A stretch of DNA of 64,000 nucleotides from Armatimonadota bacterium (GTDB taxonomy: Bacteria > Bacillota > Desulfotomaculia > Desulfotomaculales > Nap2-2B). Location: NCBI GenBank assembly GCA_023511535.1, contig JAIMBK010000007.1:3866-67865 (forward strand), written 5' to 3'. Position 1 is the first letter of the stretch; each line of letters opens with the position of its first letter. A program made the translations under genes and the position numbers. Below, piece by piece: positions 386 through 23,671 of this stretch. Below the pieces are notes generated by a model, which was not told the origin of the DNA, ran no database searches, and saw only the letters and a list, made by a program, of their open reading frames with translations.

Positions 386-1216
386 CTATTTTTTAGCCTT
401 CCATGAATAAACCAATCCCGAAACAAAAAGCAGGAACACGGCGCTTGTAAACACGCCCGCCGCGACCGGAAACGGCTGCTTTATATCTTCAAAAAGTTCC
501 CAGGGAGGAAGGGTCAAAAACCTTTCGGTAATTACCGTCTGCTGCGCGGCATTTTGCTCAAACTCCCGGACCGTGGCGCGCTCCGGCACGCCGAAATTTA
601 CCTTTTTGCTCAGTTCGAAATAATTCCCTGAAAAGACATCGTCTTTTACCTTAACCGTAAATGACTCGCCGGTCGACCGGCGAACAAAGGTAAATTGATA
701 ATTCTCCAGCGAAATATTTTTGGACAGTTCCTGCAGGTTTTTGTACGACGCGTCCTTTACTTCGGTCCCGTCCGGCAAAACGAGGCCGAAATCGCCTTTT
801 GCCTTTACGCCGCGCACGTCAGGCCCGGCGCCGGTCAGGTATTGAAAAGAAACCACGGAAGTATATGAGGGAAGAGAGCTGACCACCTTGATGTCGTCTC
901 TTTCTGGTGTTTCTTTGCCCCAAAGCGCTTCTATGCCTGCCTGCATGGCTCTGTAAGCGCACGCCACATCAACGGTGGACCCCGCTCCCCCCGTCTTTTC
1001 CCTGCAATAGCCGGCCACATCGGCAAGGGATATCTTGAGAAGAGTATCCCCGTCGTAGATTTCAACGGGAGGCAGGTCCAGGTGCCTGTTCAAAGCCGAA
1101 TGAGCTTCTGCCGGACCGGCCGGCATGAACATTATCCAGAGCACAAGCATTACCCGGATCAAAAATAAAGCGGCCGGAACCTTTCCGTTTCTGCGGGTAT
1201 AATGCTCACATTTCAT
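386..1216 (-). CDS. Exported, C-terminally membrane-anchored FmdE-like (putative metal-binding) domain protein
   Basis: Signal peptide (AEA|H), C-terminal TM plus KAKK tail; CAYRAMQAGIEALW...ERDDIKVVSSLP...FTFVRRSTGE resembles FmdE N-terminal domain and the repeats in 20699..23671. Confidence 0.6.
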   Translation of the reverse strand: MKCEHYTRRNGKVPAALFLIRVMLVLWIMFMPAGPAEAHSALNRHLDLPPVEIYDGDTLLKISLADVAGYCREKTGGAGSTVDVACAYRAMQAGIEALWGKETPERDDIKVVSSLPSYTSVVSFQYLTGAGPDVRGVKAKGDFGLVLPDGTEVKDASYKNLQELSKNISLENYQFTFVRRSTGESFTVKVKDDVFSGNYFELSKKVNFGVPERATVREFEQNAAQQTVITERFLTLPPWELFEDIKQPFPVAAGVFTSAVFLLFVSGLVYSWKAKK

Positions 1217-1247
1217 TACATAATCCCCTCGCTTTAAAATTTTCCGC

Positions 1248-2888
1248 CTACCATTCCATAGTCGCCTTGAAGATATCGGAAGCGGTCGCCACCCCCCGGC
1301 GCAGCTTGATGATCCCGTCCTCGCGCAGGGTGCGCATTCTGCCTTTTACGTGTTCTTTGATGACTGCCGTATCGGCGCCGCCGGCGACTAGTTTTTGCAG
1401 CCCCTGGTCGAGCACCAGGAGTTCGAAAATACCCGTTCTTCCCCTGTACCCCGTCCCCTGGCAAAAAGCACAGCCCTTGCCGGCGTAAAATTCCTCGCCG
1501 CGGCCGGGGCTCAAGCCCAGAGCCAACATTTCCTCCGGGGGCGGGGTATATTTCTGCCGGCACCGGGGGCAAATCACGCGCACCAGCCGCTGGGCCAGCA
1601 CGGCCCGCAGGGCGGAACTCACCAGGTAGCGCTCGCAGCCCATGTCGACGAGCCGCTCAACTGCGCTGGCCGCGTCATTCGTATGGAGGGTGGAGAGCAC
1701 CAGGTGGCCGGTAAGGGCGGCCTGCAGGGCCAGGCCGGCGGTCTCGCCGTCCCTGATTTCGCCCACCATGATGATATCGGGGTCCTGCCTTAAAATGGCC
1801 CGCAGGGCGCTGCTGAAGGTCATTTTTTTCGACGAATAATCCACCTGGGTCTGGTTCACGCCCTCCATCTGGAGCTCGATAGGGTCTTCCACGGTAGTGA
1901 TATTCACGCTGTCGCTGCGCAGGTACTTGAGCGCGGCGTACAAAGTACTGGTTTTGCCGCTGCCGGTGGGCCCGGTAACCAGGATCAGCCCGTGGGGCAG
2001 GTCGAGCAGACTGCGGAAGGACTCCTGCACATCTTTTTCCATCCCCAGGTCTTCGATTCCCAGGAGCCGTTCCTGGGAGGGCAAAAGCCTTAAAACGGCC
2101 TTTTCCCCGCCGGCGCAGGGCAGAGTGGAAGCCCTGATGTTTGTAGAATTGCCATTCTCATCCGGCCTGAACACAAAACCTCCGTCCTGGGGGCTGCGCC
2201 TATCGGCAATGTTCATGTTGCACAGGACTTTAATCCTTGAAATAAGCAGCGGCGCCATGGCGGCCGGTATCCGGTCCACGGTCTTGAGCGTCCCGTCGAT
2301 GCGCAGGCGGACGCGCAGGCCGTCGCTTCCCGGCTCCAGGTGCAGGTCGGAAGCACGCTGGGCGACGGCTTTAAGGAGCAGCCCGTCCAAAAGTTTTATG
2401 GCGTCAGCCGCTCCTCCCGGGGCGTCCGGCCCCTCAACCGCCGGCGCCGCTTCCCCGCTGTCTTCGGAATAAGCCTGCCGCCGGACGGCGGCAAGCTCGG
2501 AGGAGCCCATGAGGACAAGGTGCACCCGTTTGCCGGTAAGCCTGCGCAAGTTCTCCAGGATTGCGCTGTTAACCGGTTCGGAACAGGCAATCAACAGGTC
2601 ATTCTCCTTTAAAGCCACGGGGACGATGTTATGCTTGAGCGCAACCGGCCTGGGCACCATGGCCAAAACGTCGGGGGTGAGCAGGACCTCGTCGACCGGA
2701 AACGTCTGCAGGCCGAAAAATTCACCCAGCAAAGGGGTTAACCGGTCTTCCTCCAGGTACCCCTGCTCGACAAGCACCTCGCCCAGCTTTTTATTCGAAC
2801 CGCGCTGGGCTCTCAGGGCGGCGGCCAGTTCCTGCTGGCTCAGCACGCCCCTGGCGACGAGAAATTCCCCCAACCTCTGCCTGGGCAT
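1248..2888 (-). CDS. pilB: Type IV pilus assembly ATPase PilB/GspE
   Basis: N-terminal RLGEFLV...KLGEVLV (MshEN-like), Walker A GPTGSGKT, TVEDPIE, LRQDPDIIMVGEIRD, CxxC...CxxC zinc motif. Confidence 0.95.
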   Translation of the reverse strand: MPRQRLGEFLVARGVLSQQELAAALRAQRGSNKKLGEVLVEQGYLEEDRLTPLLGEFFGLQTFPVDEVLLTPDVLAMVPRPVALKHNIVPVALKENDLLIACSEPVNSAILENLRRLTGKRVHLVLMGSSELAAVRRQAYSEDSGEAAPAVEGPDAPGGAADAIKLLDGLLLKAVAQRASDLHLEPGSDGLRVRLRIDGTLKTVDRIPAAMAPLLISRIKVLCNMNIADRRSPQDGGFVFRPDENGNSTNIRASTLPCAGGEKAVLRLLPSQERLLGIEDLGMEKDVQESFRSLLDLPHGLILVTGPTGSGKTSTLYAALKYLRSDSVNITTVEDPIELQMEGVNQTQVDYSSKKMTFSSALRAILRQDPDIIMVGEIRDGETAGLALQAALTGHLVLSTLHTNDAASAVERLVDMGCERYLVSSALRAVLAQRLVRVICPRCRQKYTPPPEEMLALGLSPGRGEEFYAGKGCAFCQGTGYRGRTGIFELLVLDQGLQKLVAGGADTAVIKEHVKGRMRTLREDGIIKLRRGVATASDIFKATMEW

Positions 2889-2901
2889 TCTCTCTCCCCC
2901 G

Positions 2902-4008
2902 TTATTTAAGGCCTAATTTTTCTTTTAACAGGGCCGGGTTGCGGGCACCCCTGAGCGCCGTAAAACGGTCGACGGCGCCTGCTTTGACCAGTTTTTCCAG
3001 GGACTGTTCCATGGTCTGCATGCCCGCTTTTATCCCGGTTTCTATGGCCAGGTGGATGTGCTCCTGCTTCCCGAGGCGGATCAGGTTGCTGACGGCCGGC
3101 GTCACCATCATCACTTCCGCGGCCAGGACCCGCCCTTTGCCGTCGGCGCGGGGCAGCAACTGCTGGGAAATAACCGCCTTCAGCGAGACGGACAGCTGCT
3201 GCCTCACCTGGCCCTGCTCCTCCGCCGGGAAAACGCCGATCATCCTGCTGATTGAAGAGACGGCGTCCCGGGAGTGAAGGGTGGAAAAAACCAGGTGCCC
3301 CGTTTCCGCCGCCATGATTGCCGCGCGAATGGTCTCCAGGTCGCGCATCTCGCCGACCAGGATGACGTCGGGGTCGGCCCGCAGGGCCGAGCGGAGGGCG
3401 TCGGCGAAGGATTCCACGTCCGTGTGCAGTTCCCGCTGGTTGACAATGCTCTGCCGGTTGAAATGGACATACTCAATGGGATCTTCGATGGTGATTATGT
3501 TGTACCTGAACTTTTCGTTGATCCTGTCGATAATGGCAGCCAGCGTGGTTGTTTTACCGCTGCCGGTGGCGCCCGTAACCAGGACCAGCCCGTTGGCCAG
3601 GCCGGGCAGGCCGTAAACGGACTCCGGCAGGCCGAGGTTTTCCAGGGAAGGGATGTCATCGGCAAGCCGGCGGATGACGCAGGTGATCGAGCCTCTTTGA
3701 AAGTAGGCGTTGACCCGGAACCGGCCGATTCCGCTCAAGCTGACGGCCAGGTCGACCGAAAATTTTTTCTCCAGGACTTCTCTCTGCCGGGGAGTCAGAA
3801 TCTGGTCCAGAAGACGCCTGATCTCCCCCGGGGTCAGCGGCCGGTAACGGTCCAGGGCCGTCAGGCGCCCCGCCACCCGGAGCACCGGCGGCGTGTTGGC
3901 CGTCAGGTGCAGGTCGGAGGCATCCCGCTCCTTCGCCTCCTTAAGCAGTTCATCGACGTGAAAGACAAGCTCGCTTCCGGCGGCCGAAGCAAATGCCGGG
4001 CCCATCAA
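2902..4008 (-). CDS. pilT: Type IV pilus retraction ATPase PilT
   Basis: ASDLHL, GATGSGKTTT, LRADPDVILVGEMRD, AAETGHLVFSTLH, AVSNLIR (AIRNLIRE-like), GMQTMEQ. Confidence 0.93.
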   Translation of the reverse strand: MMGPAFASAAGSELVFHVDELLKEAKERDASDLHLTANTPPVLRVAGRLTALDRYRPLTPGEIRRLLDQILTPRQREVLEKKFSVDLAVSLSGIGRFRVNAYFQRGSITCVIRRLADDIPSLENLGLPESVYGLPGLANGLVLVTGATGSGKTTTLAAIIDRINEKFRYNIITIEDPIEYVHFNRQSIVNQRELHTDVESFADALRSALRADPDVILVGEMRDLETIRAAIMAAETGHLVFSTLHSRDAVSSISRMIGVFPAEEQGQVRQQLSVSLKAVISQQLLPRADGKGRVLAAEVMMVTPAVSNLIRLGKQEHIHLAIETGIKAGMQTMEQSLEKLVKAGAVDRFTALRGARNPALLKEKLGLK

Positions 4009-4020
4009 ACCCCCCCTCCT

Positions 4021-4653
4021 TTAAATAAGCAGCTCGATAGTGATCACGGGACCGCCGGCTTTGGCCGCGTCCTTGCCCGCGGTTTTAGCGCCGGCATCAA
4101 TCTTGAGGTTTTTAATCAAGATCAGATACTCTGATTTCATTAGCGCTTCCCCAAAGCGGGCAAGGCCGCCGGGATCCCCCTCCAGAACCAGGCGGTATTC
4201 CTGCCAGTTGTACAAACTTGCCCCTTCCGGCAAAATCGAAACGGGTTTTTCCGCCTGTTTGGCGGGCCGGGCGTCTTTCTCCGCCTGCGCGGACACGGAT
4301 TTCAGTTCAATCAGGTCCATTCCGCAGGCAAAGGCCAGGCGGTTGATTTCCGTTACGGCCCCGGTAACCTCGTTCTCCGCCTGCGCTTTTTTAAAAACGG
4401 GCGCAATGTTTAAATTATTTTCCAGTTCCGCCGCCTCTTTCTTTTTTTTCCTGATTTTTTCTTCCAGGAGGCTGCTCCCGGCGGCCATCTCCTGGCTCGC
4501 CACTTCTTCCCGCAAGGACCTCAACTCCTGGCTTGATTTCTTGTATTCTTTCATTACCGGATCGTAGACCTTGTTCAGGTAAAAGTAAAAACCGCCGCTC
4601 AGAGCCACGATCAGGATTAAAATTTTTTGCATCCTGGTCAATTGCCGTTTCAC
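4021..4653 (-). CDS. PilO/GspM-like alignment protein
   Basis: Single N-terminal TM, coiled coil, C-terminal alpha/beta domain; position after PilMN. Confidence 0.7.
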   Translation of the reverse strand: MKRQLTRMQKILILIVALSGGFYFYLNKVYDPVMKEYKKSSQELRSLREEVASQEMAAGSSLLEEKIRKKKKEAAELENNLNIAPVFKKAQAENEVTGAVTEINRLAFACGMDLIELKSVSAQAEKDARPAKQAEKPVSILPEGASLYNWQEYRLVLEGDPGGLARFGEALMKSEYLILIKNLKIDAGAKTAGKDAAKAGGPVITIELLI

Positions 4654-4659
4654 ACTGCT

Positions 4660-6168
4660 TCAGGCCCCCTTACCGCGGGTGTCGGCGGGCCGGGCTTCAG
4701 CGTCCAGCAAAACCTTGATGCTGAACTCATAAACGTTGTTCGCCACCTCCGCGGTCATTTCTTTTTCCCCGCCCGAGCCGGCTATTTTTTCGGTTATTTT
4801 TTCGGTTGCCGTCCGCCGGGAAATGCTTTCTATGTTCACCTGCCTGCACCACTCCTTGCCCTGCAGGGTCATGGCCAGCACATTAACGGAGGCCGGGCTG
4901 GAGCATTCCCCCTGCACAGAATACAGGTCGTCGCCGAGCGGCTCGAATTTCTTTAAAGTGAAATCCGCCGGCCCGCTGCGTGCCAGCGTGGAAAGCAGCG
5001 CCCAGAGGACTTTTTCTTTATCCAGGGCGCTTCCCTGCAAAAAGTCCAGCTTTTTCTTCAAAGTTAAAATTTGTTTTTCTATCTCCTCGGCTTCGTTTTT
5101 CAGCCTGGAATAACTTTCCTTCTGCGCTTGCAGGGCGCCAACTTCCGCATTACAGCGGCTGAGCTGTTGTTTCAAGAAAACGTAGTGGCCGCAAAAGAGC
5201 ACCACAACGGCCAGCACGGCCGCCACGGGAAGAACCTGCACCCTTTGCCGGATCAGCCTGGCCAGTTCCACGCCGTCGTCAACGCCGGCGCTTTTCCAGC
5301 CCCCCCGAAGATAGATCTGGCGCAGGCCCGCCCCGAGGGCGGAAGCGAATGCGGGCGTAAAATCACCACCCGCCTGGAGGTGTAAAACGGCGGCGTCGGC
5401 ACCCATTTTTTGCCGGAAGAATTCAACAACGCCCGCTTCAAGCCCGCCGGGCCCGGTAAGCAAAACTTTCCGGCCGGCAACCCCCCAGGCCTCAAAAATT
5501 TCTTTCAGCGAGGGCTCCGGTTCGGCAGAGGGCAGGCCGTCCAGGTGGGCGCGGCTCGCCGCCAGGCCCGCCGGCAGGGTCCGGAAGGCGGTGATCTTGC
5601 CGTCCTCAACCAGGGCAAACTTCATCGCCTGCCGCCCCACGTCGACAACCACCCAGTCTTTTTCCTTGCCGGCAAACACGGCCCCCACGGGAAAGCAAAC
5701 GTCCGGCGGGTATACTTTTTTCAGCCTGAGGTTGCATTCCGCAAACACTTTTTTCAGGCTCCGGTAATCCTCGTCCAGCATCACGGACACCCGGACCCCC
5801 GTCTGCCCTTCCCCGGTCTCAAAGCCCACCTCGTAGCCCACCAGGCTCTCCGCGGCGGGGATGACCATGTACGGCTCGGCTTCCCAGCGCAGTGCCTCTT
5901 TTAACCGGGACGACTTCAGCTTGCGCATCCTTTTGCTGTCCATGGCGAGCTCGATCACCGCCGCCAGGGGGCTGACCACCACAGCGCTTTTCGGGCATTT
6001 GGCGATCCGCGAGGTAATCATGGACAGCTCCGCCGCGGTGATCATCTCGCTTTCTTCCGCGCGGTCGAGCTGAAGGCAGTCGCTGACCGCAATACCTCTA
6101 AAATTTCGCCTGAGCACGGCCGCCCTCAAGGTCATCCCGTCAATTTCAACGGCCAGCACGGAGAACAA
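4660..6168 (-). CDS. Fused PilM-PilN alignment protein
   Basis: Actin-like PilM N-terminus (VLAVEIDG, LRWEAEPY, VVVDVG, VLLTGPGG), TM, coiled coil and PilN-like C-terminus. Confidence 0.8.
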   Translation of the reverse strand: MFSVLAVEIDGMTLRAAVLRRNFRGIAVSDCLQLDRAEESEMITAAELSMITSRIAKCPKSAVVVSPLAAVIELAMDSKRMRKLKSSRLKEALRWEAEPYMVIPAAESLVGYEVGFETGEGQTGVRVSVMLDEDYRSLKKVFAECNLRLKKVYPPDVCFPVGAVFAGKEKDWVVVDVGRQAMKFALVEDGKITAFRTLPAGLAASRAHLDGLPSAEPEPSLKEIFEAWGVAGRKVLLTGPGGLEAGVVEFFRQKMGADAAVLHLQAGGDFTPAFASALGAGLRQIYLRGGWKSAGVDDGVELARLIRQRVQVLPVAAVLAVVVLFCGHYVFLKQQLSRCNAEVGALQAQKESYSRLKNEAEEIEKQILTLKKKLDFLQGSALDKEKVLWALLSTLARSGPADFTLKKFEPLGDDLYSVQGECSSPASVNVLAMTLQGKEWCRQVNIESISRRTATEKITEKIAGSGGEKEMTAEVANNVYEFSIKVLLDAEARPADTRGKGA

Positions 6169-6222
6169 AGGGACCGCCTCCTCCTTCCAGACGTCGACCC
6201 GGCCAGGCGCCCGCCCGGCAGG

Positions 6223-9087
6223 TTATTCATCCCTTCTGACATATACAACCAGGCTTTCCTCCGCCGGGCACTGGCTCCCGCCGGCCCCGACAAATACCGC
6301 CGGCGGATACGCGCCCGCAATCTCCCCTGCTGTAGCCTGAATTTCAATCCGCCGCCTGCCGGCAAAAACATCGCCCGGAAGCGCAAACGTCCTGCTTTCG
6401 CCGGGGGGGACGGAAATGCTTGCCGTTAAAGGATCTCCTGCGGGCTGATGGTAAAGGGTGACCGTCACTTCGGCGGCCGGTGGCTGCCCCGCCTCCTGGT
6501 AATTAATACATTTTCCGTTCGGGTCCCACAGCGTGCATGCGTACTCCTTCGGGGTAAGGTTAACGACCCGGCCCTTTACGGCCATGCCGGCGGCCTTCCA
6601 CGCGGAGTCTTCGACGGTTAACGCAATGTTGTCGTCCGCGGTATCGATCTTCTTGTCCCGCCCGGCGCTGGCAATAGTCAGGCGGGTCGCCTGAAGAAGA
6701 TCCGGAGCGTCGTATTCAAAGTGCAAAGGCGTCCCCCAGGAGTCGCGTAAAACCTCGTTTTCCCCTTCCCCCCACGGCTTTGCGAGGTAGGGGCCGCGCC
6801 AGGCAAAACCTCTGGGCCCGGCAGGGGGGGGATCGGGGGGATCGTGATCGCTGTAACCTTCCGCGGGGTCCCAGGCCCACAGGCCGCGGGGCTGGCCCCC
6901 ACCGGCAGCTGAAACCTCCCACCCGGCGCCGGTCCACTGCCAGAGCTTCGGCCACTGGCCCATGTCGCCCAGATAACCCCCGACGAGGGGCCGGCCGCAA
7001 GTGTCGAAGGCGTCCGGCGGGCCGGTCAGCGCGCTCTTGATGCTTTCCAGAATCCGGCGGGTCTGTTCTTCCTGGACGTCCAGGTTGGGGGTGTACCATT
7101 CGTCGGGAGTGATTTCCAGGACGACGTTGTCCTTGTTTGCGGGGGCGTCTCTGGCGTAAGAACCCCTGCTCAACGGCCCCGGCGGGCTGCTTTCCGCCGG
7201 CAGGGCCACCTTGCCGTCCGGGCCGGCGCTGATTACCAGCAGGTAAACGCCGCGGGCGTCCTGCTCCTTGATAAAAAACAGCGCCCGCCCCCAGGCGTCG
7301 GCCAGGATCCCTTCGGTCCTCCGCAGGGGGCTCACGTCCTGGTTTGCGTTGTCGAACGCCGCCCGGGGGTAGGCCAGGTAGGGCCCCTTCCAGGAGGCCC
7401 AGTCAATACCGGTATCCCGGTCGAATTTTTCCCACAGCCCGAGCGGCTGGCCGATAAAGGTAAAATCAACCCCGTCGCCGCCGCTGTAAACTTCCTCGCC
7501 CACCGCGGCGCCCTCCGGTTTTTGCCAGCGGTTTTCGCCGGCGTCCCAGGTAAACTTATACAGCCTGGGCAGGGCGTCCATGTCCCCCGCGTACCCCCGG
7601 ACCACGCGCCGCCCCCGCTCGTCATAGGTGTTGGCCGGCCCGGCGACGGCGGCGCGGACGGCTTCCAGCCGCTCCCGGGTGGCCTTGACGCGGCCCGCTT
7701 TGTCCAGGTGGCCGATAAAGGGCACGAACATGGCGGCCAAAAAGCCCAGAACGGCGATGATTACGATCACTTCCAGCAGAGTAAATCCGCCCGCCCGGCG
7801 GACGTCCCGCAACACTTGTCGCTCTCCCCCCACGCCTGCCGCGGCAATATTTTCTTCCGGGGCCGCTGTTTCCCGGGCGGGCGCCGCCCTGCCGCCGCCG
7901 GCCGCAAGCATCCCCAGCACGATCCAGAACAGGGGCATGACCAGGATTGTCTCGAAGTGGAAAAGCCCCTGGACGAGGTAGACGGCGGCCATGGCCGGAA
8001 GCTCGGGGCGCGCCCGGAACCGGTGCCGCGCTTCCCATAAAACAAAACCTAAAAACGCCAGGTAGGCAATCAGGGCGAACATGCCCATGGTCACGGCCGT
8101 TTCCAGGTAAAGGCTGGGGGTTTTGTCCAGAAGAGAGGCAAAGGGCAGCATCCTGGCGACGTGCGTCAGGTGGTCGGGCCCCAGGCCGAAGGCCCAGCAG
8201 TGGGGCAGCAGCCGCAGGGCGCTTTGCCAGGCAGCCGCCTGCTCCAAAGGGCTGGTCACCCCCACTTTACCCGCGAGGCCCCAGAAAATTATCCCGGCCG
8301 CAAAGAGCAGCGTGACGCCCGGCAAAACCAGGGCGGGCGCCAGCCACGCCCTTTTCCTTTCCGCAGCGAAAGAATACCGGGCGACCACGGCCAGGCCGAA
8401 AACAGCTCCCATCCACGCGCCCCAGTTGAAGCTCACCAGGAGCCCGGCGTAAATGACGGCCGCGGCGGCAAGCCAGGCCGGCCGGCGGCGGCCGGCGTAA
8501 ACGGACAGGGCGGCGGGCAGGACAAAGGCGGCATAGGTACCGAGGTAGTCGGGGTTGCCCAGGGTGCCGTAAGCGGTCAAAGCCCGGCGGAAGGGCTCGT
8601 GGGGCACCGGGTTCAGGCCGCAGACCTGGAGCACGGCCAGGAAGGAGACGATCACCGCCGCGGCGGCCATGCAGGCCGGGAGCTTTTCGCTGTTGTCGGC
8701 CCGGGAGGCGAGAACGAACAAAACGGCGCAAAAAAGATAAGTGCAAAGGCCGGTGTAGCGCACGGGCGCGCCCACCCAGGCGGTCGCGGGGTAGGCGGCC
8801 AGCGCGGCGGCCGCCAGGGCGAAAAAGAAAAAGAACCCCAGGGGGACGAACGCGCGGCCGCCGATCCTGGCCTTTTCTTTGAGCAGGACCGCCAGCGCCA
8901 GCAGGGACGCGGCCGCCAGGGCCAGGTACCGCGGCGCGTAAAAGTAATCCGGCGGGTGGTTCCCCAAAAAGGATAATTGGTTGGGCACGACCAGCAGGGG
9001 GTAGACGGCCGCCATAAAGTAAAGGATCAGATTTTTAAGGTCAGCCTGTCGGCATCCGCCGCGCCAGTTCTTCACGTTTAAGGCCAA
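6223..9087 (-). CDS. O-antigen ligase/pilin oligosaccharyltransferase-like membrane domain fused in frame to a prepilin with two GspG-like domains
   Basis: Likely TTG start 9087 after GGAGG; many TMs with GTLGNPDYLG and FGLGPD; internal class III site GG|FTLLEVIV; two W(K/R)GPYL...D(A/S)WG...SAGxD repeats. Confidence 0.8.
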   Translation of the reverse strand: MALNVKNWRGGCRQADLKNLILYFMAAVYPLLVVPNQLSFLGNHPPDYFYAPRYLALAAASLLALAVLLKEKARIGGRAFVPLGFFFFFALAAAALAAYPATAWVGAPVRYTGLCTYLFCAVLFVLASRADNSEKLPACMAAAAVIVSFLAVLQVCGLNPVPHEPFRRALTAYGTLGNPDYLGTYAAFVLPAALSVYAGRRRPAWLAAAAVIYAGLLVSFNWGAWMGAVFGLAVVARYSFAAERKRAWLAPALVLPGVTLLFAAGIIFWGLAGKVGVTSPLEQAAAWQSALRLLPHCWAFGLGPDHLTHVARMLPFASLLDKTPSLYLETAVTMGMFALIAYLAFLGFVLWEARHRFRARPELPAMAAVYLVQGLFHFETILVMPLFWIVLGMLAAGGGRAAPARETAAPEENIAAAGVGGERQVLRDVRRAGGFTLLEVIVIIAVLGFLAAMFVPFIGHLDKAGRVKATRERLEAVRAAVAGPANTYDERGRRVVRGYAGDMDALPRLYKFTWDAGENRWQKPEGAAVGEEVYSGGDGVDFTFIGQPLGLWEKFDRDTGIDWASWKGPYLAYPRAAFDNANQDVSPLRRTEGILADAWGRALFFIKEQDARGVYLLVISAGPDGKVALPAESSPPGPLSRGSYARDAPANKDNVVLEITPDEWYTPNLDVQEEQTRRILESIKSALTGPPDAFDTCGRPLVGGYLGDMGQWPKLWQWTGAGWEVSAAGGGQPRGLWAWDPAEGYSDHDPPDPPPAGPRGFAWRGPYLAKPWGEGENEVLRDSWGTPLHFEYDAPDLLQATRLTIASAGRDKKIDTADDNIALTVEDSAWKAAGMAVKGRVVNLTPKEYACTLWDPNGKCINYQEAGQPPAAEVTVTLYHQPAGDPLTASISVPPGESRTFALPGDVFAGRRRIEIQATAGEIAGAYPPAVFVGAGGSQCPAEESLVVYVRRDE

Positions 9088-9134
9088 AGCCGGTACCTCC
9101 ACCCAGATCACTGGCGGAATCTTTCTCCCGCCGT

Positions 9135-9203
9135 CTTTCCCGCCGGAGGGTTTTCCGGCGGGAAGTTAAAACAGGGGCGGGGCGCCCGCCCCCACCCCTG
9201 TTT
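9135..9203 (-). terminator. Two stem-loops downstream of the major pilin (probable terminator/mRNA stabiliser)
   Basis: ttcccgccgga...tccggcgggaa and aaaacagggg...cccctgtttt inverted repeats. Confidence 0.65.
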
Positions 9204-9223
9204 TAAGCGCCCGGATCAAGCTG

Positions 9224-10162: not shown

Positions 10163-10242
10163 CGGTATCTCCCTTCTTGTTTTGGTTTCCAAGAAGGGTT
10201 CACCCGCAGAACCGTCCTTCCTGGTCAGTTAATCAATAATTA

Positions 10243-10332: not shown

Positions 10333-10522
10333 ACCCAGGCCCCGCGCCTGCGTTCAGGCTCGAAAAAACAAGCCCTTTTTCGCCTGCCCTTAAAGCAGGC
10401 TTACCCGCCGCTCACCACCTCCTTCGTCCGGCCGGGGGGATTTCACCCGCAGAAAACCACCCCGCAAATATTTAAGGATTATTTTTCCCCAGGCCCCGCG
10501 CCTGTGCAGAGAGACAATCTTT

Positions 10523-16474: not shown

Positions 16475-17123
16475 TCATCTTGCCCCCTTGCAACGCCGTT
16501 ATCTCGGCCTCTATCCAGGCCAAGACATTGTCAAAAAGAATCTCCGCCGCGGCTATTCCGTGATAAGCGTGGCAAATAGCGTCAAGCTGACTGGCGGCCA
16601 GAATAACACCTTTTGTGGTTTGCCGGTCTATATACATCACCGGATGACCAATTTCATTGGTAACCAGGATCTCGGCACGGGGCGGAACGACAAAATGCCC
16701 GTGACAGCACCAGCCCGTCGCGCCTTTATGCCAGTGGAGGTCTTGCGCTCTTAACCCCGCCAAAACCGGATGCCCTTTTTGGATCGCCAACGGACCGTCG
16801 TCCGCGGGAACCACCCCGTCCCAGCGGCATCCCGGCAACCATTGTCTGGTAACCTCGCCGAAAGTAACAACGATTTTTCCGGCCTCAAGAAATTCCCTGA
16901 TTTTTTCCCTTCCGGCGTACACCACTTCTTCATCTGTGCCCCGGGGAAAAATAAGGGCATCACAGGTCATCAGGTCTTCTTCCAAAAACCGGCAAACAGG
17001 CAGAATGATAAGTCTGTTCTTGTATTTGTCCTTTTCTAATACGCCCTGCTGGTAACTGATACCAGAATAAATCACACCAATTTTTACCTGCATTTGTTTC
17101 TTTACCGCCAATTTATCTGACAT
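16467..17123 (-). CDS. Uncharacterised cytoplasmic protein (possible class I GATase-like fold), paralog 1
   Basis: Same shared motifs; WHKGATGWCCHGHF His/Cys cluster. Confidence 0.7.
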   Translation of the reverse strand: MSDKLAVKKQMQVKIGVIYSGISYQQGVLEKDKYKNRLIILPVCRFLEEDLMTCDALIFPRGTDEEVVYAGREKIREFLEAGKIVVTFGEVTRQWLPGCRWDGVVPADDGPLAIQKGHPVLAGLRAQDLHWHKGATGWCCHGHFVVPPRAEILVTNEIGHPVMYIDRQTTKGVILAASQLDAICHAYHGIAAAEILFDNVLAWIEAEITALQGGKMNE

Positions 17124-17154
17124 TCTTCATCTCTCCAATCCCTGAATTTTACTT

Positions 17155-17955
17155 TCACCCAACCTGCTCTGCCAAAGGGAAAGGAACAACTGTCAGCATT
17201 TCCTTGCCTTCTCCGTTAAAGCTCAAGATCCTGGCCTTAATACCGAAAAAACTCCTTAAATTGTCTTCGGTAACCACTTCCTTTGTTCTGCCGACAAGGT
17301 GTCTCTTTCCCTTACCCAGCATTAGCGTTTGATCGGAAAGCCACAAAGCATGTTCAGGATAATGGGTATTAATAAGGCAAGAAATACCCCTTTCTTTGGC
17401 CAACTTTTCCAAAAGTCCCAGGACCAGCATCTGGTTTTTAAAATCCAGGTGGGATTCTGGTTCGTCCAGGACAAGGACGCGCGGTTCAGAAGCCAGGGCC
17501 CGGGCAATTAAGACAAGTTGCATTTCCCCGCCGCTAATTCTTGAACAGGGTTTGTCGGCCAGGTGAGAAGCCTCGACAACCTCCAGGGCCTTCCGGGCAA
17601 CGGCGACATCCCGGGCGGAAGGTACCCTAAAAAGACCCAGGTGGGGAGCTCTGCCCATCAGGACCATCTCCAGCACCGTATAAGGGAACACAACGCTGTG
17701 TCCTTGGGGAACATAACCAATCTTTTTCCAGACCTCGCCGTTCCTGCCATAATCAAGCGCTTGCCCGTCAATAATCGTTTGCCCTTTCCGCCACTTCAGG
17801 ATACCGGTCAGGCATTTAATCAAAGTTGTCTTGCCGGCTCCGTTCGGCCCCAGGATCGTTAAAATCTCGCCTGCCTCCAAAGAAAAGGATAGATTTTCAA
17901 AAAGGGCTTCGCCAGCTTTATAGCCAAACTCTCCCTCGCAAACTTCCAACCTCAT
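17155..17955 (-). CDS. Fe-chelate/cobalamin ABC transporter ATP-binding subunit
   Basis: GPNGAGKTT, ISGGEMQ signature, VLDEP, THYPEHA; ATG at 17955 overlaps the permease stop. Confidence 0.92.
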   Translation of the reverse strand: MRLEVCEGEFGYKAGEALFENLSFSLEAGEILTILGPNGAGKTTLIKCLTGILKWRKGQTIIDGQALDYGRNGEVWKKIGYVPQGHSVVFPYTVLEMVLMGRAPHLGLFRVPSARDVAVARKALEVVEASHLADKPCSRISGGEMQLVLIARALASEPRVLVLDEPESHLDFKNQMLVLGLLEKLAKERGISCLINTHYPEHALWLSDQTLMLGKGKRHLVGRTKEVVTEDNLRSFFGIKARILSFNGEGKEMLTVVPFPLAEQVG

Positions 17956-18977
17956 GTCCAACAACCTCCAGTTCTTTTTAGCAAGAAGACAAAGAAGGGG
18001 GCACCACTTATCCCCGTCAGAATACCCAGCGGGATTTCAGCGGCAGTCACCGTCCGGCCAATCAGGTCGATTAAAACCAGGAAAGTGGCTCCCAGCGAAA
18101 CAGTAGCCGGCAATAAGGCCTTATGGTCCGGTCCAACGATCATCCTGCCGAGATGGGGAATTACCAGACCCACCCAACCGATGATCCCGGTGACAGAAAC
18201 CGCCGCTGCGGTCACCACAGTTACCGCCCCGATAACCAGCCATTTTAACTGTTCAGTATTCACTCCCAGGGCACGGGCTTCCTCTTCGCCCAGGGATAAG
18301 ATATTGATCTTCCAGCGGACCAGAAGAAGGACAATTATCCCTCCCGTAATCGGTAATGCCACCAACCTTATATCTTCATAAGAGGTGCTGGCCAGGCTTC
18401 CCATCAACCAGTACGTGATTGCCGGCAGCTTGTCATAAGGATCGGCAATATACTTGACCAGGGAAATTAAAGCAGTAAACACCGCGGAGATCACTATGCC
18501 GGCCAGAACCAACAGCAAGCGCGAATCCCCGTGGCTGGCCCTGCTTAGCCCGTACGCTATAAAAACACTGGCGATCCCAAAAGGAACGGCAAAGAACTGG
18601 ACGAGGGCAGAGGGCCCGCCGAAGAGAATACAAAGGGTAGCGCCGAAAGCAGCTCCCGAAGTAACGCCAAGGATATCCGGGCTAACCAGGGGGTTTCGGA
18701 AAAGCCCCTGAAACGCGGCTCCCGAAACCCCCAGCCCCGCTCCTGCCAGCATGGCCAAAAGAACTCTCGGCAGTCTTTCCACAAGAATGACTGATTTTTC
18801 AATCGCCAGCGTCCCCGGCTGCACAGGAACGAGGGCGGAAAACAAAACCTTCACTACCTCGTTTGGCGTAATTGCATATCTTCCTACAAAAAGGGAAAGG
18901 ATCAAAGCCAAAAAAGGGGCTAAAAGAAGGAAAACCTTCCGCCACCCGCTACCGGGTTTATCTTCAGTTGTACTCAG
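17952..18977 (-). CDS. FecCD/BtuC family ABC permease
   Basis: RLPRVL, FRNPLVSPDILG, EEARALG, IGWVGLVIPH; start uncertain (CTG 18977 after AGGAGG, or ATG 19064). Confidence 0.92.
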   Translation of the reverse strand: MSTTEDKPGSGWRKVFLLLAPFLALILSLFVGRYAITPNEVVKVLFSALVPVQPGTLAIEKSVILVERLPRVLLAMLAGAGLGVSGAAFQGLFRNPLVSPDILGVTSGAAFGATLCILFGGPSALVQFFAVPFGIASVFIAYGLSRASHGDSRLLLVLAGIVISAVFTALISLVKYIADPYDKLPAITYWLMGSLASTSYEDIRLVALPITGGIIVLLLVRWKINILSLGEEEARALGVNTEQLKWLVIGAVTVVTAAAVSVTGIIGWVGLVIPHLGRMIVGPDHKALLPATVSLGATFLVLIDLIGRTVTAAEIPLGILTGISGAPFFVFLLKRTGGCWT

Positions 18978-18993
18978 GACGAACTTCCTCCTT

Positions 18994-20061
18994 TTATTCA
19001 ACAACGGGATGGACAATCTGGAAAGCTTTTTCCAGGGAAAGATCATAGCCATAAAAGGAAGCATAAAAATCTTTCAGCTCTTTCGCCACGGAATATTCAA
19101 CAAAAAGGTCCGGATGATGAAGTTTGGCCAGCCATTTTAACATCAAAGGCGATTCCACCGAAGGCGGGTCCCAGCGGTAGCCGGCCAGCGGGATCTTGTA
19201 AACGCGTTTATTTTTTACGGCACTGATCTGGCTCCAATCCTGCCCCTTGAGTTTGTTGCCGTAAAGATCTTCCGGTTGCAATTCGCAAAAGTTGCTGATA
19301 TAGATGATTTCCGGGTTCCAGGCCAGGATCTGTTCCATATTTGCATTCCCCCAGCCGGAAATACTTTCGGCTACGTTGCGGGCGCCGGTGGTTTCTATCC
19401 AAAAATGGTTGTATGTCCCTTTACCCGCAGTACGCAACTGTTCGTTATAAAGGTACAGGACGCGGGGCCTTTTTTCTGGGGAGATGCCGGCGGTTTTCGC
19501 TTTGATATATTCGATCGTCCGGTGATGGTAAGCGATTATTTGAGCAGCACGCTCTTGTTTGCCGAGAACGTCGCCGATAATCTCAAGCCAGCCTTCGAGA
19601 TCCTCCTGGGTACCGTAACGGATAGCTATTACCGGTATTCCCGCCTTCTCAATTTTTTCAATCTCTTCTTTCTGATGGTCCCATTGGAAGACCACGTCGG
19701 GCTGGAGTTTAAGAAGCTCTTCCAGGTTAACGGTAAATTCTTGCTTGACAAAAGAAGTGGGGATATCTTTTAATTCAAGCGCCAGGGTACCCAGCAAACT
19801 CTTTTCCACGGCAGCCCTCGCCGTTGGGTGCATACCGACGACTTTTTCGCCGCCGCCGTCCAGAGCATAAATTATCGACGGCAGCGGCATGGGCAAAACT
19901 ACTATTCTGTCAACCCGCGCCGGGATTTCTACCGTTCTGCCCAGCTGGTCCACTATTGTTCTGGTTTGAGCCGCCGGTTTCGTTTCAAAGCGGCATCCTG
20001 CCAACATACCAGCTAGATACAATATTAATATCATTATTGGTAATATTTTCTTGACAAACAT
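18994..20061 (-). CDS. Fe-chelate/cobalamin-type substrate-binding lipoprotein
   Basis: Lipobox LAGC; TIVDQLGRTVEIP..V.RIV, NLEELLKLQPDVV, EQILAWNPEII, AVKNKRVY. Confidence 0.92.
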   Translation of the reverse strand: MFVKKILPIMILILYLAGMLAGCRFETKPAAQTRTIVDQLGRTVEIPARVDRIVVLPMPLPSIIYALDGGGEKVVGMHPTARAAVEKSLLGTLALELKDIPTSFVKQEFTVNLEELLKLQPDVVFQWDHQKEEIEKIEKAGIPVIAIRYGTQEDLEGWLEIIGDVLGKQERAAQIIAYHHRTIEYIKAKTAGISPEKRPRVLYLYNEQLRTAGKGTYNHFWIETTGARNVAESISGWGNANMEQILAWNPEIIYISNFCELQPEDLYGNKLKGQDWSQISAVKNKRVYKIPLAGYRWDPPSVESPLMLKWLAKLHHPDLFVEYSVAKELKDFYASFYGYDLSLEKAFQIVHPVVE

Positions 20062-20215: not shown

Positions 20216-20491
20216 CTAAAGTTTAAGTTTCTGGCAAATCTGGGGCCAGGAACGCTTCGCGTAGACCACCGGGATATTTTTCTTGCCGGCCTGTTCTTTA
20301 ATCATCGCAGCGATGGGATGACTGACGTAGTCCGTTAAGACAATGACCAGGCCGGTCTTCTCCGGAATGCTTAACTTACCCGGAGCAATCTTTTTCCGCC
20401 CCCGGAAATGGTAAACCGGATCAAACCCCAGTAAAGAGAGGTTGTGGGGGATTCTTCCCAGCCGGTCGCCACCAACAATGAATACGCCCAT
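20216..20491 (-). CDS. DUF2325 family protein
   Basis: IVGGDRLGRI...IVLTDYVSH...IKEQAGKKNIPVVYAKRSW. Confidence 0.85.
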   Translation of the reverse strand: MGVFIVGGDRLGRIPHNLSLLGFDPVYHFRGRKKIAPGKLSIPEKTGLVIVLTDYVSHPIAAMIKEQAGKKNIPVVYAKRSWPQICQKLKL

Positions 20492-20698
20492 AACCTATCC
20501 CCTTCGTCATTCCCGGCCCCAGTTTTTGAGAAAATCAAGTCCTTTGGTGGCCCATAACAAGTAGACAATTTTGTCTCCTTGCAGTCGATAGTTGATCAGC
20601 CACGGACCCTTTCGCAAGGACTTAACGAAGACCCCTTTCGGCTCCTCATCAAGAATGCGCACCTTTTTCACTTTTTCCCCCTTTGCCGTCTTTTCAGT

Positions 20699-23671
20699 CT
20701 ACCTGTTTCTTACCGCGTCCAGCAGCCGGAGGATCATCGCCGCCGCTTCCGCCCGCGTCATGGGTGTCTTTGCCCGGAAAGTGCCGTCGGGATAGCCGGC
20801 GACAATTCCCCTCGCCACGGCAGCGCCTACGCTTGCCCGCGCCCAGTCCGGGATGTTACCGGTGTCGGTGAACCCGAGCTCTGCCGGCGTTACGGTACCG
20901 ATCTTCTTTTCCAGGATCCTTGCGCCGAGTGCGGCCATCTCCACCCGGGAAACCGGGCGATCAGCCTCAAAGGTAACCGTGCCGTCCGGCTGCGGGCAGC
21001 CCCTGACCAGCCCTTCTTTCGCCGCAGCCGCGACCGCTCCCCTGGCCCAGTCCGGGATCGAAGCATTATCTTTAAATTTCGGGTCCGGCGCGGTGCCTGC
21101 AGGGAGCTTCAGAGCACGGACCAGTATAGTGGTAACTTCAACCCGGCTGATCTCGTTGTCGGGCCTGAAAGTGCCGTCCGCGTAGCCGGAGATGACCCCC
21201 ATCCCGGCCAACCTACCCACGGTCTCCTCCGCCCAGTGGCCGGCCATGTCCTTGAAGGTGACCGATTCGGGCTTGGGCGCCTCCTTCGGTACGGCGAAGA
21301 CGGCAAAGAGCGTCAGGTGGTCGACCGTCACCGTTACGGTTCCCTTCTCGAGGTCAACGGTCCCCTCGCGGCGGACCCACCGGCCGTCCTTTTCGTCGCA
21401 GGAGAAGGCGGCCGGTTCCTGGTCCCCGGCGATCTTGCTCTTGTCGAAGGAGAGGGTGATGGTTATCTTGCCGGTCAGGGTGCCGTCCTTGAGGGTGACG
21501 TCCACGACCCTGCCGAGCAGGGGCATCCCCGCGCCCGCAGCCTTTTCGCTACCCACGACCGCAGCCTTGATCACGGCGTTCGCGCCGCTCACGGCCCCGG
21601 CCGGCACCTCGACCTTCACCTTACCGGGCACTTCGGCCTCGGTGGTCGCTCCCGCCTGCACGGGCTTTTCGACCCTCTCCGCGGACGGCGCCGGCGCTCC
21701 GCCGCCTCCGCCGCCATCACCGCCTCCGCCGTCGCCGTTACCGCTGTCGCCTTTCGTATACGTGCGGACGCTAAAGATTTCGTCGGTGGGCTTAAACAAC
21801 AGCGACCAGGTCACCTGCTCCTTTAGTTCCTTCAGCCGCGCCTTCTCTTCGGGTGTCGCCGTGCCATTTTTCACCTTATCCCGCAGGGCGAAGAAGTCCT
21901 CCGGAAAGATTTGGGACTTGCCCTTGATAACTAACGTCCGGGAGGTGTCTTTATCGGTCACCGCGTAGTAGAAGTCGCCGGCTTTGGGCGGTTCGCTCCC
22001 CTGAAGAATATAGTTCCCCTCACCGGCCACCAACTCCAGGGCTTCGCTGGTGCATTTCGTTACCCAGCCGGTGACCACTGTGAACTCGCCCCGCCGGGGC
22101 GCTCTTTCTCCGTAGAGAGTGGCAAAAGCCTCGCTAAGCGCCCGGAAGGCGAACGAACCGCACAGACAAAGCGTATCAGGCTCTACCGCGAGGTCCGCGT
22201 AGGAAAACTTCAGCGGCGCGCCGTCTGGGCCAGAAATGCTGAGCGGGGAGACCTTTTTCCAGGTGAAAAGGGCTTCCGCCGGCCGGGTAAGGAGGTTTTT
22301 GAGTAACAGGTCGAGCCGCGCCTTCAAGGCCGCCTGTTCCTCTTCAGAGGCCCGGCCGTTTACCACCCTGTTGCGCAGATCAAAGAAATCTTCGCCGCCG
22401 AAGGTGTCCGGCTTGACGTGTACCCACACCATCTCGCCGGTGGCTTTGTTGGCGAAAATGAAGGTAGGGCTCACCGGAGTGATCTTTCTCCAGTTGCCCA
22501 GGTACTTGACGTCAGCCGGGCCGGCCAGGTAGTCGAAGACCGGCTTGCTGCCGGCCTCGGGCGGCAGCAGGCTGAACACCAGCAGGTCATCCTCCGCCGC
22601 CGCCGGACGGTCCGGCCACAGGGCGGGCAGAGCCACGCCGGCCAGGCGGAAGGCCAGCACGGAGCAGGGGTACCCCTTGCCGGCGGCCCGGGCGATTTCC
22701 TGGCATCCGTCCAGAGTTAATTCCGTCGTTACCCCGTCCCTGCTCACCTCCGGCCGCGGCCAGAGTTCGGCGGCCGCCCGCCACTCCACAATACGGTTGG
22801 CGGAAGATTTTTGAAAGGTGATGAGCGCCCGCCGGCCGTTTTCCGGATACCGGTACGCGTCGTTCGGAAATTCCTTGAGAATTCCCGGAATCGTGCGCCC
22901 GGTGAAGTGACCCTCGCTGACCATCACCGGAACCACCAGGGCGGTGGCCCCGTCGGTATAGACGGCTTCGTAAACGGCCTCCCGCAGAGAAGGGGTCAGA
23001 CCTTCAAAAAGGAAGCCGTACTTTATATCTTTCAGCCTGTTGCTTCCCAGCCGTTCCTGGATCTGGCTTCCAAGGGAACGCAGGTTATCCACCCACCCGG
23101 CCTGGCCTTCGGCGGAGTCGCTGCCGTGCGCGGCCAGGACCCCTATTTCGCTGCCGGCGTCTTCAACCAGCAGCCCAATCTGTTCGGCAAGCACTTCGGC
23201 CAGCAAGGGGTGGTCGTCGACGGCCGGCGTTAAAACCACTTCCCCTTGCGGTCTGGCCCTTTCCAGGGGCTCTCCGTGCTCTCCGCCCGGCAAGTCCTCC
23301 CTTAAACCCAGGATGTATTTGATCTCCTCGATGTGATTGGAGTAACTGGCGATGAACAGCGGCACGGCCACAATTTTGTTGACCCCCGCCGCATTAAGTT
23401 GTTCCACCGCGGCCGGAATACCCGGCTCTACTTCTTCCAAAAACCCGAGGGCTACCGGATAAGGAAAGTTGTCCCTCAATTCGTAAGCCGCTTCCCACAC
23501 GGGCGTGGTCCAGGTGGGGTCATTCGTCCCGTGGACGACGATCAGTACACCGGGCTTTACCTCTTCGCCTGCCCAAGCAACCCCGTGGGGCGCCAGAGAC
23601 AACAGGGAAAGGAGAAGAACCAGGAAAAGCAGGCCGGTAAGCCGCCTCTTTGCTACCTTGGGTTTCCACAT
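20699..23671 (-). CDS. Secreted S-layer-anchored protein: CbiX/SirB chelatase domain, two FmdE-like domains, Gly linker, three SLH domains
   Basis: Signal peptide AWA|G; VHG...GFLE...VPLFIASYSNH and AAHGS...PVMVSEGH; two C/A-FR-A...FF.LR..V.NG.A repeats; GYADGTFRPDNEISR and GYPDGTFRA SLH repeats. Confidence 0.85.
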   Translation of the reverse strand: MWKPKVAKRRLTGLLFLVLLLSLLSLAPHGVAWAGEEVKPGVLIVVHGTNDPTWTTPVWEAAYELRDNFPYPVALGFLEEVEPGIPAAVEQLNAAGVNKIVAVPLFIASYSNHIEEIKYILGLREDLPGGEHGEPLERARPQGEVVLTPAVDDHPLLAEVLAEQIGLLVEDAGSEIGVLAAHGSDSAEGQAGWVDNLRSLGSQIQERLGSNRLKDIKYGFLFEGLTPSLREAVYEAVYTDGATALVVPVMVSEGHFTGRTIPGILKEFPNDAYRYPENGRRALITFQKSSANRIVEWRAAAELWPRPEVSRDGVTTELTLDGCQEIARAAGKGYPCSVLAFRLAGVALPALWPDRPAAAEDDLLVFSLLPPEAGSKPVFDYLAGPADVKYLGNWRKITPVSPTFIFANKATGEMVWVHVKPDTFGGEDFFDLRNRVVNGRASEEEQAALKARLDLLLKNLLTRPAEALFTWKKVSPLSISGPDGAPLKFSYADLAVEPDTLCLCGSFAFRALSEAFATLYGERAPRRGEFTVVTGWVTKCTSEALELVAGEGNYILQGSEPPKAGDFYYAVTDKDTSRTLVIKGKSQIFPEDFFALRDKVKNGTATPEEKARLKELKEQVTWSLLFKPTDEIFSVRTYTKGDSGNGDGGGGDGGGGGGAPAPSAERVEKPVQAGATTEAEVPGKVKVEVPAGAVSGANAVIKAAVVGSEKAAGAGMPLLGRVVDVTLKDGTLTGKITITLSFDKSKIAGDQEPAAFSCDEKDGRWVRREGTVDLEKGTVTVTVDHLTLFAVFAVPKEAPKPESVTFKDMAGHWAEETVGRLAGMGVISGYADGTFRPDNEISRVEVTTILVRALKLPAGTAPDPKFKDNASIPDWARGAVAAAAKEGLVRGCPQPDGTVTFEADRPVSRVEMAALGARILEKKIGTVTPAELGFTDTGNIPDWARASVGAAVARGIVAGYPDGTFRAKTPMTRAEAAAMILRLLDAVRNR

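Follow-up and report, generated by a model that had tools for sequence, protein, structure and literature searches.

Exported FmdE-like domains on a surface chelatase-like protein and in a type IV pilus operon: members of a mostly secreted family with a proposed role in iron acquisition

The window analyzed here, a 64,000-nucleotide stretch of contig JAIMBK010000007.1 (positions 3,866 to 67,865 of the forward strand) from the Armatimonadota bacterium assembly GCA_023511535.1, encodes two proteins that carry three copies of an FmdE-like domain. P0001 (386..1216, minus strand, 276 aa) contains a single copy, and P0002 (20699..23671, minus strand, 990 aa) contains two tandem segments, referred to as copy B and copy C. 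Both open reading frames (ORFs) were present at the positions given in a preliminary description of this DNA, and their translations contain all the peptides quoted there. In P0001, a signal peptide (1103..1216) is followed by an FmdE-fold ectodomain (approximately 479..1084) and a membrane anchor (404..466). Its N-terminus displays a positive charge, a hydrophobic core, and a cleavage-type site between PAEA and HS, with His39 as the predicted mature N-terminus; the C-terminus forms a hydrophobic helix (residues 251-271) followed by KAKK. P0002 consists of an N-terminal hydrophobic signal peptide (23573..23671), a double CbiX chelatase-like module (22772..23551; two PF01903 stretches scoring 75.6 bits, cut-off 22), copy B (22238..22759), copy C (21752..22237), a Gly-rich linker with a beta-rich region of no assigned family (21260..21751), and three SLH repeats (20702..21259; 118.5 bits). 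Export was called from hydropathy and the helices of structural models rather than by a dedicated signal-peptide predictor.

Pairwise BLASTP aligned P0001 residues 40-250 with copy B (P0002 residues 300-482; E 5e-8, 37 bits, 27% identity) and with copy C (residues 476-640; E 5e-6, 31 bits), and the two P0002 copies with each other (E 8e-10, 42 bits), all E-values referring to pairwise search spaces. A comparison by hhalign of the P0001-family profile (11 sequences) with the P0002-family profile (33 sequences) yielded a probability of 100 and an E-value of 1.2e-40 over 164 columns, the P0001-family profile falling on the second P0002 copy, copy C. Although the pairwise bit scores are modest, the strength of this profile comparison settles the homology of the three segments. 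The Pfam FmdE model (PF02663) matched P0002 at 34.6 bits, above the gathering cut-off of 22.9, with its best stretch at residues 510-634. P0001 scored 17.8 bits, below the same cut-off, and its membership is established through the profiles and the fold only.

To place the domains structurally, we compared the AlphaFold model of P0001 (pLDDT 91.5) with 48,161 solved chains. Only three reached a Z-score of at least 8, all of them FmdE-like: 2glz_B (Z 10.6, root-mean-square deviation 3.2 over 135 residues), 3d00_A (Z 9.8), and 2gvi_A (Z 9.3); the next chain scored 4.7. Foldseek placed the same FmdE-like entries at the top. The model of P0002 residues 300-645 (pLDDT 93.5, pTM 0.90) disclosed two tandem repeats with an equal secondary-structure pattern. 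Its Foldseek search returned four matches at E ≤ 1e-3, all FmdE-like, and the structural alignments ranked 2glz_A (Z 11.8), 3d00 (10.2), and 2gvi (9.1) above the next chain (4.8). These matches cover model residues 1-199, corresponding to copy B, and copy C is assigned by Pfam and hhalign. A sequence-profile search of all PDB chains returned no FmdE entry and only two designed proteins, matched by chance; the FmdE fold is thus read from the predicted models. The preliminary description had claimed that one FmdE-like domain occurs three times and that all copies are predicted to be extracytoplasmic, one membrane-anchored (P0001) and two on the SLH-anchored P0002, and it had suggested AlphaFold and Foldseek comparison with FmdE. 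Both claims held, with FmdE-like structures top-ranked for both models. The three segments are confirmed as homologous, exported versions of the N-terminal alpha+beta domain of FmdE. Four ordinary FmdE genes are located elsewhere in this genome, on other contigs.

According to the excerpted text of PMC2954224, solved FmdE proteins are intertwined dimers in which Zn or Ni is bound by His15, His17, Cys19, and Cys55 (2GLZ numbering), at the base of a groove with room for a bulky ligand. Two solved structures have an occupied metal site, and 3D00 is missing two of the ligands (PMC2954224, excerpt). Since 3D00 also lacks these residues, the metal site is not definitive of the FmdE family as a whole. 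At the position of this site, the secreted family displays the consensus YHGxxCxC...AFRA, with CPC and CxC as the commonest motif forms, and all feo-linked members described below retain YH...CxCxxC...C, with the His, the CxCxxC, and one more Cys in place. All four FmdE ligands are missing from P0001 (YC...TVDVAC...VVSFQ), and copy B has one Cys left of the set. Copy C is the only copy in the window with a CxC (C502 and C504, nearly invariant in 33 chelatase-fused proteins); the full His-x-His-x-Cys plus distal Cys site is absent.

A family profile built from the three window copies and the P0001 relatives retrieved 266 representative clusters (50% identity) at E ≤ 1e-3, and 148 at E ≤ 1e-10, among 1.84 billion proteins. 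An N-terminal hydrophobic segment was detected by a crude hydropathy test in 75 of the 87 members of 190-330 aa. We scanned for additional domains in the 55 members of at least 300 aa among the 150 best family matches; CbiX was found in 27, ZinT in 3, and NosD-type beta-helices in 3, along with one Shr-like haem-protein domain accompanied by CbiX and one molybdopterin-oxidoreductase domain. Wall anchors (SLH, Cu_amine_oxidN1, dockerin) were frequent in these proteins. This is a mostly secreted FmdE family with two arms, one fused to chelatases and one of membrane-anchored single-domain proteins, and it has apparently not been described so far. Both P0002 copies belong to the chelatase-fused arm, in which the domains follow secreted CbiX modules on wall-anchored proteins. 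An archaeal 280-aa cluster in the ESM Atlas contains 55% FmdE members (score 0.85), and the family profile run over 401 genomes of the phylum detected mainly ordinary cytoplasmic FmdE proteins. Among short secreted members, P0109, P0125, P0132, and P0162 have a CxxCH haem-c attachment motif at their start, before the FmdE-like domain. Ordinary FmdE genes, not of the secreted type, were accompanied by a Peripla_BP_2 binding-protein gene within 1.5 kb in 6 of 27 sampled loci of the phylum (L112, L114, L118, L120, L121, L122), and for this reason a link to type-II ABC importers may extend to the FmdE family as a whole.

Genomic context was evaluated with the P0001 subfamily profile in 10 reference-genome loci and 37 metagenome loci; given this narrow profile, the sample is biased towards the membrane-anchored arm. 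The genome loci derive from ANME-1/Methanophagales, Methanosarcinales, Archaeoglobales, another Methanobacteriota metagenome-assembled genome (MAG), Dehalococcoidia, and an unclassified bacterium. A feo cluster contains or adjoins the FmdE-like gene in all 10 genome loci and in 20 of the 37 metagenome loci, usually in the order feoA(x3)-feoA-feoB GTPase part-feoB membrane part-150-aa membrane protein-FmdE-like-110-130-aa protein. Nine of the 47 loci encode a secreted CbiX protein in the same cluster, which brings together a surface CbiX protein, a membrane-anchored and ligand-bearing FmdE-like protein, and feoAB. Fur or DtxR-type regulators are located near the FmdE-like gene in L018, L022, L028, and L044, the last of which carries a secreted CbiX and a DtxR-type repressor and no Feo. 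Twelve shorter metagenome contigs display only the two family-less flanking genes; L026 has CRISPR-Cas neighbours, L039 a radical-SAM gene, and L059 and L060 are very short contigs with no informative neighbours. No PilB or PilC match was found in any of the 47 loci. A complex prediction for the L019 FeoB membrane part and its FmdE-like neighbour (residues 40-280) gave 0.00 in two runs without controls, a value that says nothing either way. In the archaeal feo clusters (L016-L055, for example L019:4597-8068), separate genes encode the GTPase and membrane parts of FeoB. One gene flanking the archaeal FmdE-like gene encodes a conserved multi-pass membrane protein of about 150 aa and no family, and the other a likewise conserved Cys-rich protein of about 119 aa with a weak FeoC-like match (E 0.002).

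The relationships among the copies were traced in a 221-domain FastTree phylogeny, its supports being SH-like values only, from which rows of fewer than 120 profile positions had been dropped beforehand and in which two long branches were flagged. P0001 and its counterparts in two other genomes, G082 and G006, fell into a 15-row clade (SH-like support 99), nested in a 78-row branch that also contains all 29 feo-linked rows. Copies B and C occupy separate sub-clades of a 74-row branch made up mostly of CbiX-fused proteins. This placement of P0001 and the P0002 copies in different major branches identifies them as ancient paralogues. An origin of P0001 as a recent duplicate of a P0002 domain was considered and is rejected by the tree. 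The CxC is absent throughout the 15-member pilus clade. The clade retains a His directly after the predicted signal-peptide cut, and a motif of the A-H-x-P type is present in 27 of 39 members with a signal peptide plus membrane anchor versus 6 of 36 with a signal peptide only, a pattern count that missed P0005, which has AEAH. Across 24 aligned anchored members, His40 and Pro42 are invariant. Copper sites formed by an N-terminal His are known.

P0002 is located in an island of genes on the minus strand, in the order feoA-feoA-feoB-P0002-DUF2325-binding protein-permease-ATPase. A full-length feoB (24045..26132, 695 aa) lies directly upstream of P0002 across a 373-nt gap and is itself preceded by two feoA genes (26456..26695 and 26190..26408). 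Downstream of P0002 are the DUF2325 gene (20216..20491) and the genes of a type-II (Btu/Fhu/Hmu-like) ABC importer, namely a lipoprotein substrate-binding protein (18994..20061; Peripla_BP_2, lipobox LAGC), a FecCD/BtuC-type permease (17952..19064), and an ABC ATPase (17155..17964). Directly after the ATPase gene are two genes for paralogous proteins of about 220 aa (16467..17123 and 15809..16474), which have no signal peptide and no Pfam or NCBIfam match. No riboswitch, cobalamin and NiCo classes included, was found near P0002 at the gathering or at a relaxed threshold. We aligned the CbiX module with the solved CfbA chelatase 6m25; H47 pairs with His9 and E79 with Glu42, two positions of the His/Glu/His set that we take to be catalytic in small class II chelatases. 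The best NCBIfam matches of the chelatase part are nickel/cobalt chelatases (CfbA, 64-65 bits), far below their cut-offs.

P0002-like matches at E ≤ 1e-5 were found in 14 of 162 genomes of the class, the window's own included, and nine others were strong. In the nine orthologue loci, Feo genes are adjacent in four and an ABC importer in two; three loci have neither. The DUF2325 gene accompanies the P0002-like gene in three of these nine relatives (L085, L088, and L089), as it does in the window, and in L088 and L089 it is positioned between feoB and the P0002-like gene.

P0001 lies in a different setting, a type IV pilus operon on the minus strand. The pilB gene (1248..2888), encoding a T2SSE ATPase with an MshEN domain, is 31 nt upstream of P0001, and pilC (T2SSF; the N-terminal part at 2..376, 431 aa in the contig) starts 9 nt past the P0001 stop. 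Further upstream are pilT (2902..4008), a gene of no identified family at the PilO position (4021..4653), a gene for a PilN-domain protein (4660..6168), a 962-aa ORF with an internal prepilin motif (6223..9111), and the gene for a 322-aa pilin (9224..10192), whose leader contains a riboswitch of the cyclic di-GMP (c-di-GMP)-I class (10246..10330; 57 bits, gathering score 35). A small conserved ORF (10568..10849), 93 aa long when started at the ATG at 10849, matches no family, and its homologue precedes the pilin gene in G082 (L125:1033-1278). G082 and G006, two genomes of the same order but of families other than the window's, have an identical nine-gene arrangement, with the FmdE-like gene between pilB and pilC; no c-di-GMP riboswitch was found upstream of these two syntenic operons. 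A read-through ORF, P0039, joins the C-terminus of PilB to a P0005-like domain. NCBIfam has no model for P0001 or for the family-less neighbour genes. P0001 is a conserved component of the pilus operon, and its conserved neighbours are pilB and pilC, not metal transporters.

Several further observations concern this region. The prepilin N-methylation motif of the 962-aa ORF is at residue 438, and the G082 counterpart is encoded by two ORFs (L123:1333-2553 and 2519-4102), so the window's ORF may represent either a gene fusion or two genes merged into a single reading. Just beyond the left edge of the window, pilC is followed by a gene with an HD_5 domain (L015:2282-2932). On the plus strand, at 11677..12286, a gene for a PIN-domain protein (139 aa, 71.9 bits) follows an overlapping 76-aa ORF, which is the layout of a VapBC-type toxin-antitoxin pair.

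A window search with a Fur-box consensus, allowing up to 3 mismatches, identified 8 Fur-like boxes where 0.86 were expected, all of them pattern matches only. One box, TGAGAATCATTTTCA (26145..26159), lies just upstream of the feoB start, and a palindromic box, TGAGAATAATTCTCA (26720..26734), is 25 nt upstream of the first feoA. At the pilus operon, a promoter-like TTGACA-18-TAAAAT (10571..10542, minus strand) is directly followed by two overlapping Fur-like boxes (10522..10542), and the promoter-like site of the small ORF (10976..10948, minus strand) is accompanied by three (10906..10948). With 11 of 12 positions each, these are the two best promoter-like sites in window positions 1..11200. 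The degenerate pattern TGADAATNATTHTCA matched 7 sites in the 3.18-Mb genome with up to 1 mismatch, and all 3 perfect sites precede feo genes, two in the window and the third before a second feoAB (contig C44). The genome encodes 4 Fur-family proteins. Among the orthologue loci of P0002, Fur-like boxes occur in 4 of 9, with seven in 20 kb of L092, and G082 has a perfect box at its operon head, before the prepilin peptidase gene. A Fur-like box is also found 20 nt upstream of a gene for a GGDEF diguanylate cyclase (contig C52:16873-16887); together with the boxes at the pilus promoters, it hints at a circuit running from iron through c-di-GMP to the pilus.

Our overall reading, to which we lean by a small margin of belief over doubt, is that the copies are exported FmdE domains, drawn from a family that is secreted for the most part and helps to acquire iron outside the cytoplasm. 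Most likely, such domains handle iron there on behalf of Feo or the ABC importer, possibly after haem dechelation. P0002 would sit on the S-layer, its double CbiX module capturing either free metal or a metal-tetrapyrrole, for which haem is the likeliest candidate. Where iron is scarce and conditions are reducing, the module may also work as a chelatase in reverse. Copy C, with its CxC, would receive Fe(II) or hold the macrocycle, and we infer that the degenerate copy B may pack against copy C, mimicking the second subunit of the FmdE homodimer. Fe(II) would enter via FeoB, and the lipoprotein binding protein and the ABC importer would take up the chelate or the porphyrin. P0001, which appears to retain only the conserved mature N-terminal His, would not be a metal station and could instead be an accessory ectodomain of a type IV pilus machine that is possibly iron-regulated. 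The metal-handling role that the preliminary description assigned to the domain stands in part: the family is tied to metal uptake, and P0001 has no metal site.

Comparison with the FmdE family itself (2GLZ, 2GVI, 3D00) reveals the same alpha+beta core, a P0002 score above the Pfam cut-off, and a His/Cys consensus of the secreted family at the position of the Zn/Ni site. Unlike those proteins, the window proteins are exported rather than cytoplasmic, lack the C-terminal zinc ribbon, and carry either a fused CbiX module or a membrane anchor; their ligands are altered (CxC) or lost (P0001, copy B). In place of fmd/fwd genes, P0001 has pilus genes beside it, and P0002 has feo and ABC genes. FmdE is absent from the Fwd complex structure as presented in the excerpted text of PMC11237513, and there is no mention of FmdE in that of PMC8351635.

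Precedents for the proposed chemistry come from other envelopes. Desulfovibrio vulgaris CbiK is reportedly a periplasmic relative of the class II chelatases. In Bacteroides fragilis, according to the excerpted text of PMC6460266, haem loses its iron to an unidentified dechelatase outside the cytoplasm, and FeoAB brings that iron in; the same text cites Porphyromonas gingivalis IhtB as a CbiK-like surface protein and proposed haem dechelatase. The B. fragilis route (BtuS1/BtuS2) resembles the one proposed for P0002 in that tetrapyrrole iron would be freed outside the cytoplasm and Fe(II) imported by Feo, but its proteins are CobN-like and act in another envelope type. IhtB with its ABC importer likewise places an extracytoplasmic chelatase fold beside a type-II importer for a proposed stripping of iron from haem (PMC6460266, excerpt). 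In contrast to IhtB and CbiK, P0002 is of the CbiX type, is SLH-anchored in a Gram-positive wall, carries two FmdE-like domains, and adjoins feoAB. The pilus operon resembles c-di-GMP-controlled pilus operons of Gram-positive bacteria, of which Clostridioides difficile pilA1 is an example, in having a pilin operon behind a c-di-GMP riboswitch and pilB, pilC, pilT, and pilMN-like genes; it differs in its class I riboswitch, its Fur-like promoter boxes, and an FmdE-fold protein between pilB and pilC. Pilus-dependent iron acquisition is reportedly known in Synechocystis.

The preliminary description had linked the two genes more directly, in a relay resembling that of NEAT domains, by which membrane-anchored P0001 and the S-layer copies of P0002 would hand metal or a tetrapyrrole inward. 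The common fold, the position of all copies outside the cytoplasm at two envelope depths, and the Fur-like boxes before both gene clusters, possibly an indirect link, speak for such a relay, and the NEAT/Isd haem relay of Gram-positive bacteria likewise has wall-anchored proteins with repeats of one ligand-handling domain, acting upstream of an ABC importer that depends on a lipoprotein. The NEAT fold is unrelated: P0002 has no Pfam NEAT match, and the NCBIfam "NEAT" model touches only the SLH region (796-979) at 42.9 bits against a cut-off of 1275. Against the relay, P0001, the membrane-proximal copy, and its whole 15-member clade lack the His/Cys ligands; its conserved neighbours are pilB and pilC in three genomes; it belongs to a different ancient branch from the P0002 copies; and the genes are about 19.5 kb apart in separate operons. 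The preliminary description had itself named a lack of conserved ligand-binding residues as telling against its proposal, and that is largely what was found, with none in P0001 and one Cys in copy B, although copy C keeps its CxC. As P0001 has lost the metal site and belongs to the pilus operon, we consider a P0001-P0002 relay very improbable. Relay logic is more plausible in the 9 of 47 loci in which a surface CbiX protein, an anchored FmdE-like protein, and feoAB are encoded together.

Two other accounts, each of which we regard as unlikely though less so than the relay, concern P0002 and the family at large. The secreted chelatase-like module could serve corrinoid, cobalt, or nickel salvage, capturing cobamides or Co/Ni while the FmdE-like copies bind Ni, Zn, or Co. 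The CfbA-type Ni/Co chelatases are the best matches of the module, the permease best matches BtuC, the ATPase matches include a corrinoid ATPase, ZinT fusions occur in three family members, and Zn and Ni were found in solved FmdE proteins (PMC2954224, excerpt); in Desulfovibrio, a B12 riboswitch is common to cbiK-cbiL and btuCDF (PMC545781, excerpt). Yet those NCBIfam scores are far below the cut-offs, the riboswitch searches of the window, and of the P0002 surroundings at relaxed threshold, found none of the cobalamin or NiCo class, the genes immediately upstream are feoA-feoA-feoB with Fur-like boxes, and Feo is the recurrent neighbour across the family. With about the same low probability, the CxC/CPC motif could be a thiol-disulfide or Fe(III)-reducing centre, or the domains could dimerise and position the chelatase or the Feo permease. 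This would accommodate the frequency of CPC and CxC, the intertwined dimers of solved FmdE proteins (PMC2954224, excerpt), the compact tandem B-C model (pTM 0.90), the conservation of two window copies that are ligand-less, and the CxxCH haem-c motif of the four short members mentioned above. Against a redox or scaffold function, the residues of the feo-linked members match a site that is metal-occupied in two crystal structures (PMC2954224, excerpt), the thioredoxin-type CxxC is missing, and the structure search revealed no redox-enzyme relative.

Extracytoplasmic iron acquisition, the reading we favour, also has evidence weighing against it. All functional statements are drawn from genomic context and amount to guilt by association, and the FmdE fold, although widespread and represented by solved structures, has to our knowledge no known function. 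With P0001 and copy B ligand-less, canonical metal binding is out of reach for two of the three copies in the window. In the chelatase module, His75 of 6m25 pairs in the alignment with N112 of P0002, H113 being one residue off, and NCBIfam, with all importer matches far below cut-off, does not discriminate among haem, siderophore, and corrinoid as the substrate. Feo is not visible in five of the nine P0002 orthologue loci, two of which are cut by contig ends and three truly without it, and the 47 loci are kin, so that the context counts overstate independence. The Fur-like boxes at the feo genes and the pilus promoter are predicted sites, recognized as pattern matches; there is none in the 373-nt gap between feoB and P0002, none in the fetched stretch of five of the nine orthologue loci, and none within 1.4 kb of the pilus operon head in G006. 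Fe(II) is usually plentiful in anoxic habitats, so that haem dechelation would be less needed there, and the ZinT fusions, together with Zn and Ni in the crystals, make metals other than iron possible.

What is new is a secreted FmdE branch with ties to both Feo and secreted chelatases; one of its offshoots has lost the ligands and lies in a pilus operon. A literature search returned no paper combining FmdE and FeoB, nothing for FmdE with chelatase beyond a methanogen genome survey, and nothing on topic, by title and abstract, for FmdE with ABC transporter and periplasmic. A bolder version of the iron-acquisition reading, which we put forward tentatively and think rather doubtful as a whole, is that Feo of anaerobic Archaea and Gram-positive bacteria finds its missing extracytoplasmic partner in the secreted FmdE-like domain, a Cys/His receptor for Fe(II) or haem feeding FeoB; that with CbiX it would constitute an oxygen-independent surface haem dechelatase; and that a ligand-less paralogue, its mature N-terminal His conserved, was recruited to an iron- and c-di-GMP-controlled pilus, tying piliation to iron foraging. 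If true, this would provide the first concrete biochemical role for the FmdE fold, and it would touch on two open questions, how Fe(II) is delivered to Feo outside the cell and how strict anaerobes release iron from haem without oxygen. The FmdE branch with the His/Cys site, found in feo operons of Archaea and Bacteria and fused to chelatases, offers a testable protein, and its members come from ANME, Methanosarcinales, and relatives of sulfate reducers, organisms with a very high iron demand. The pilus paralogue, conserved and so far unexplained, is part of a Gram-positive type IV pilus operon that is possibly under iron control.

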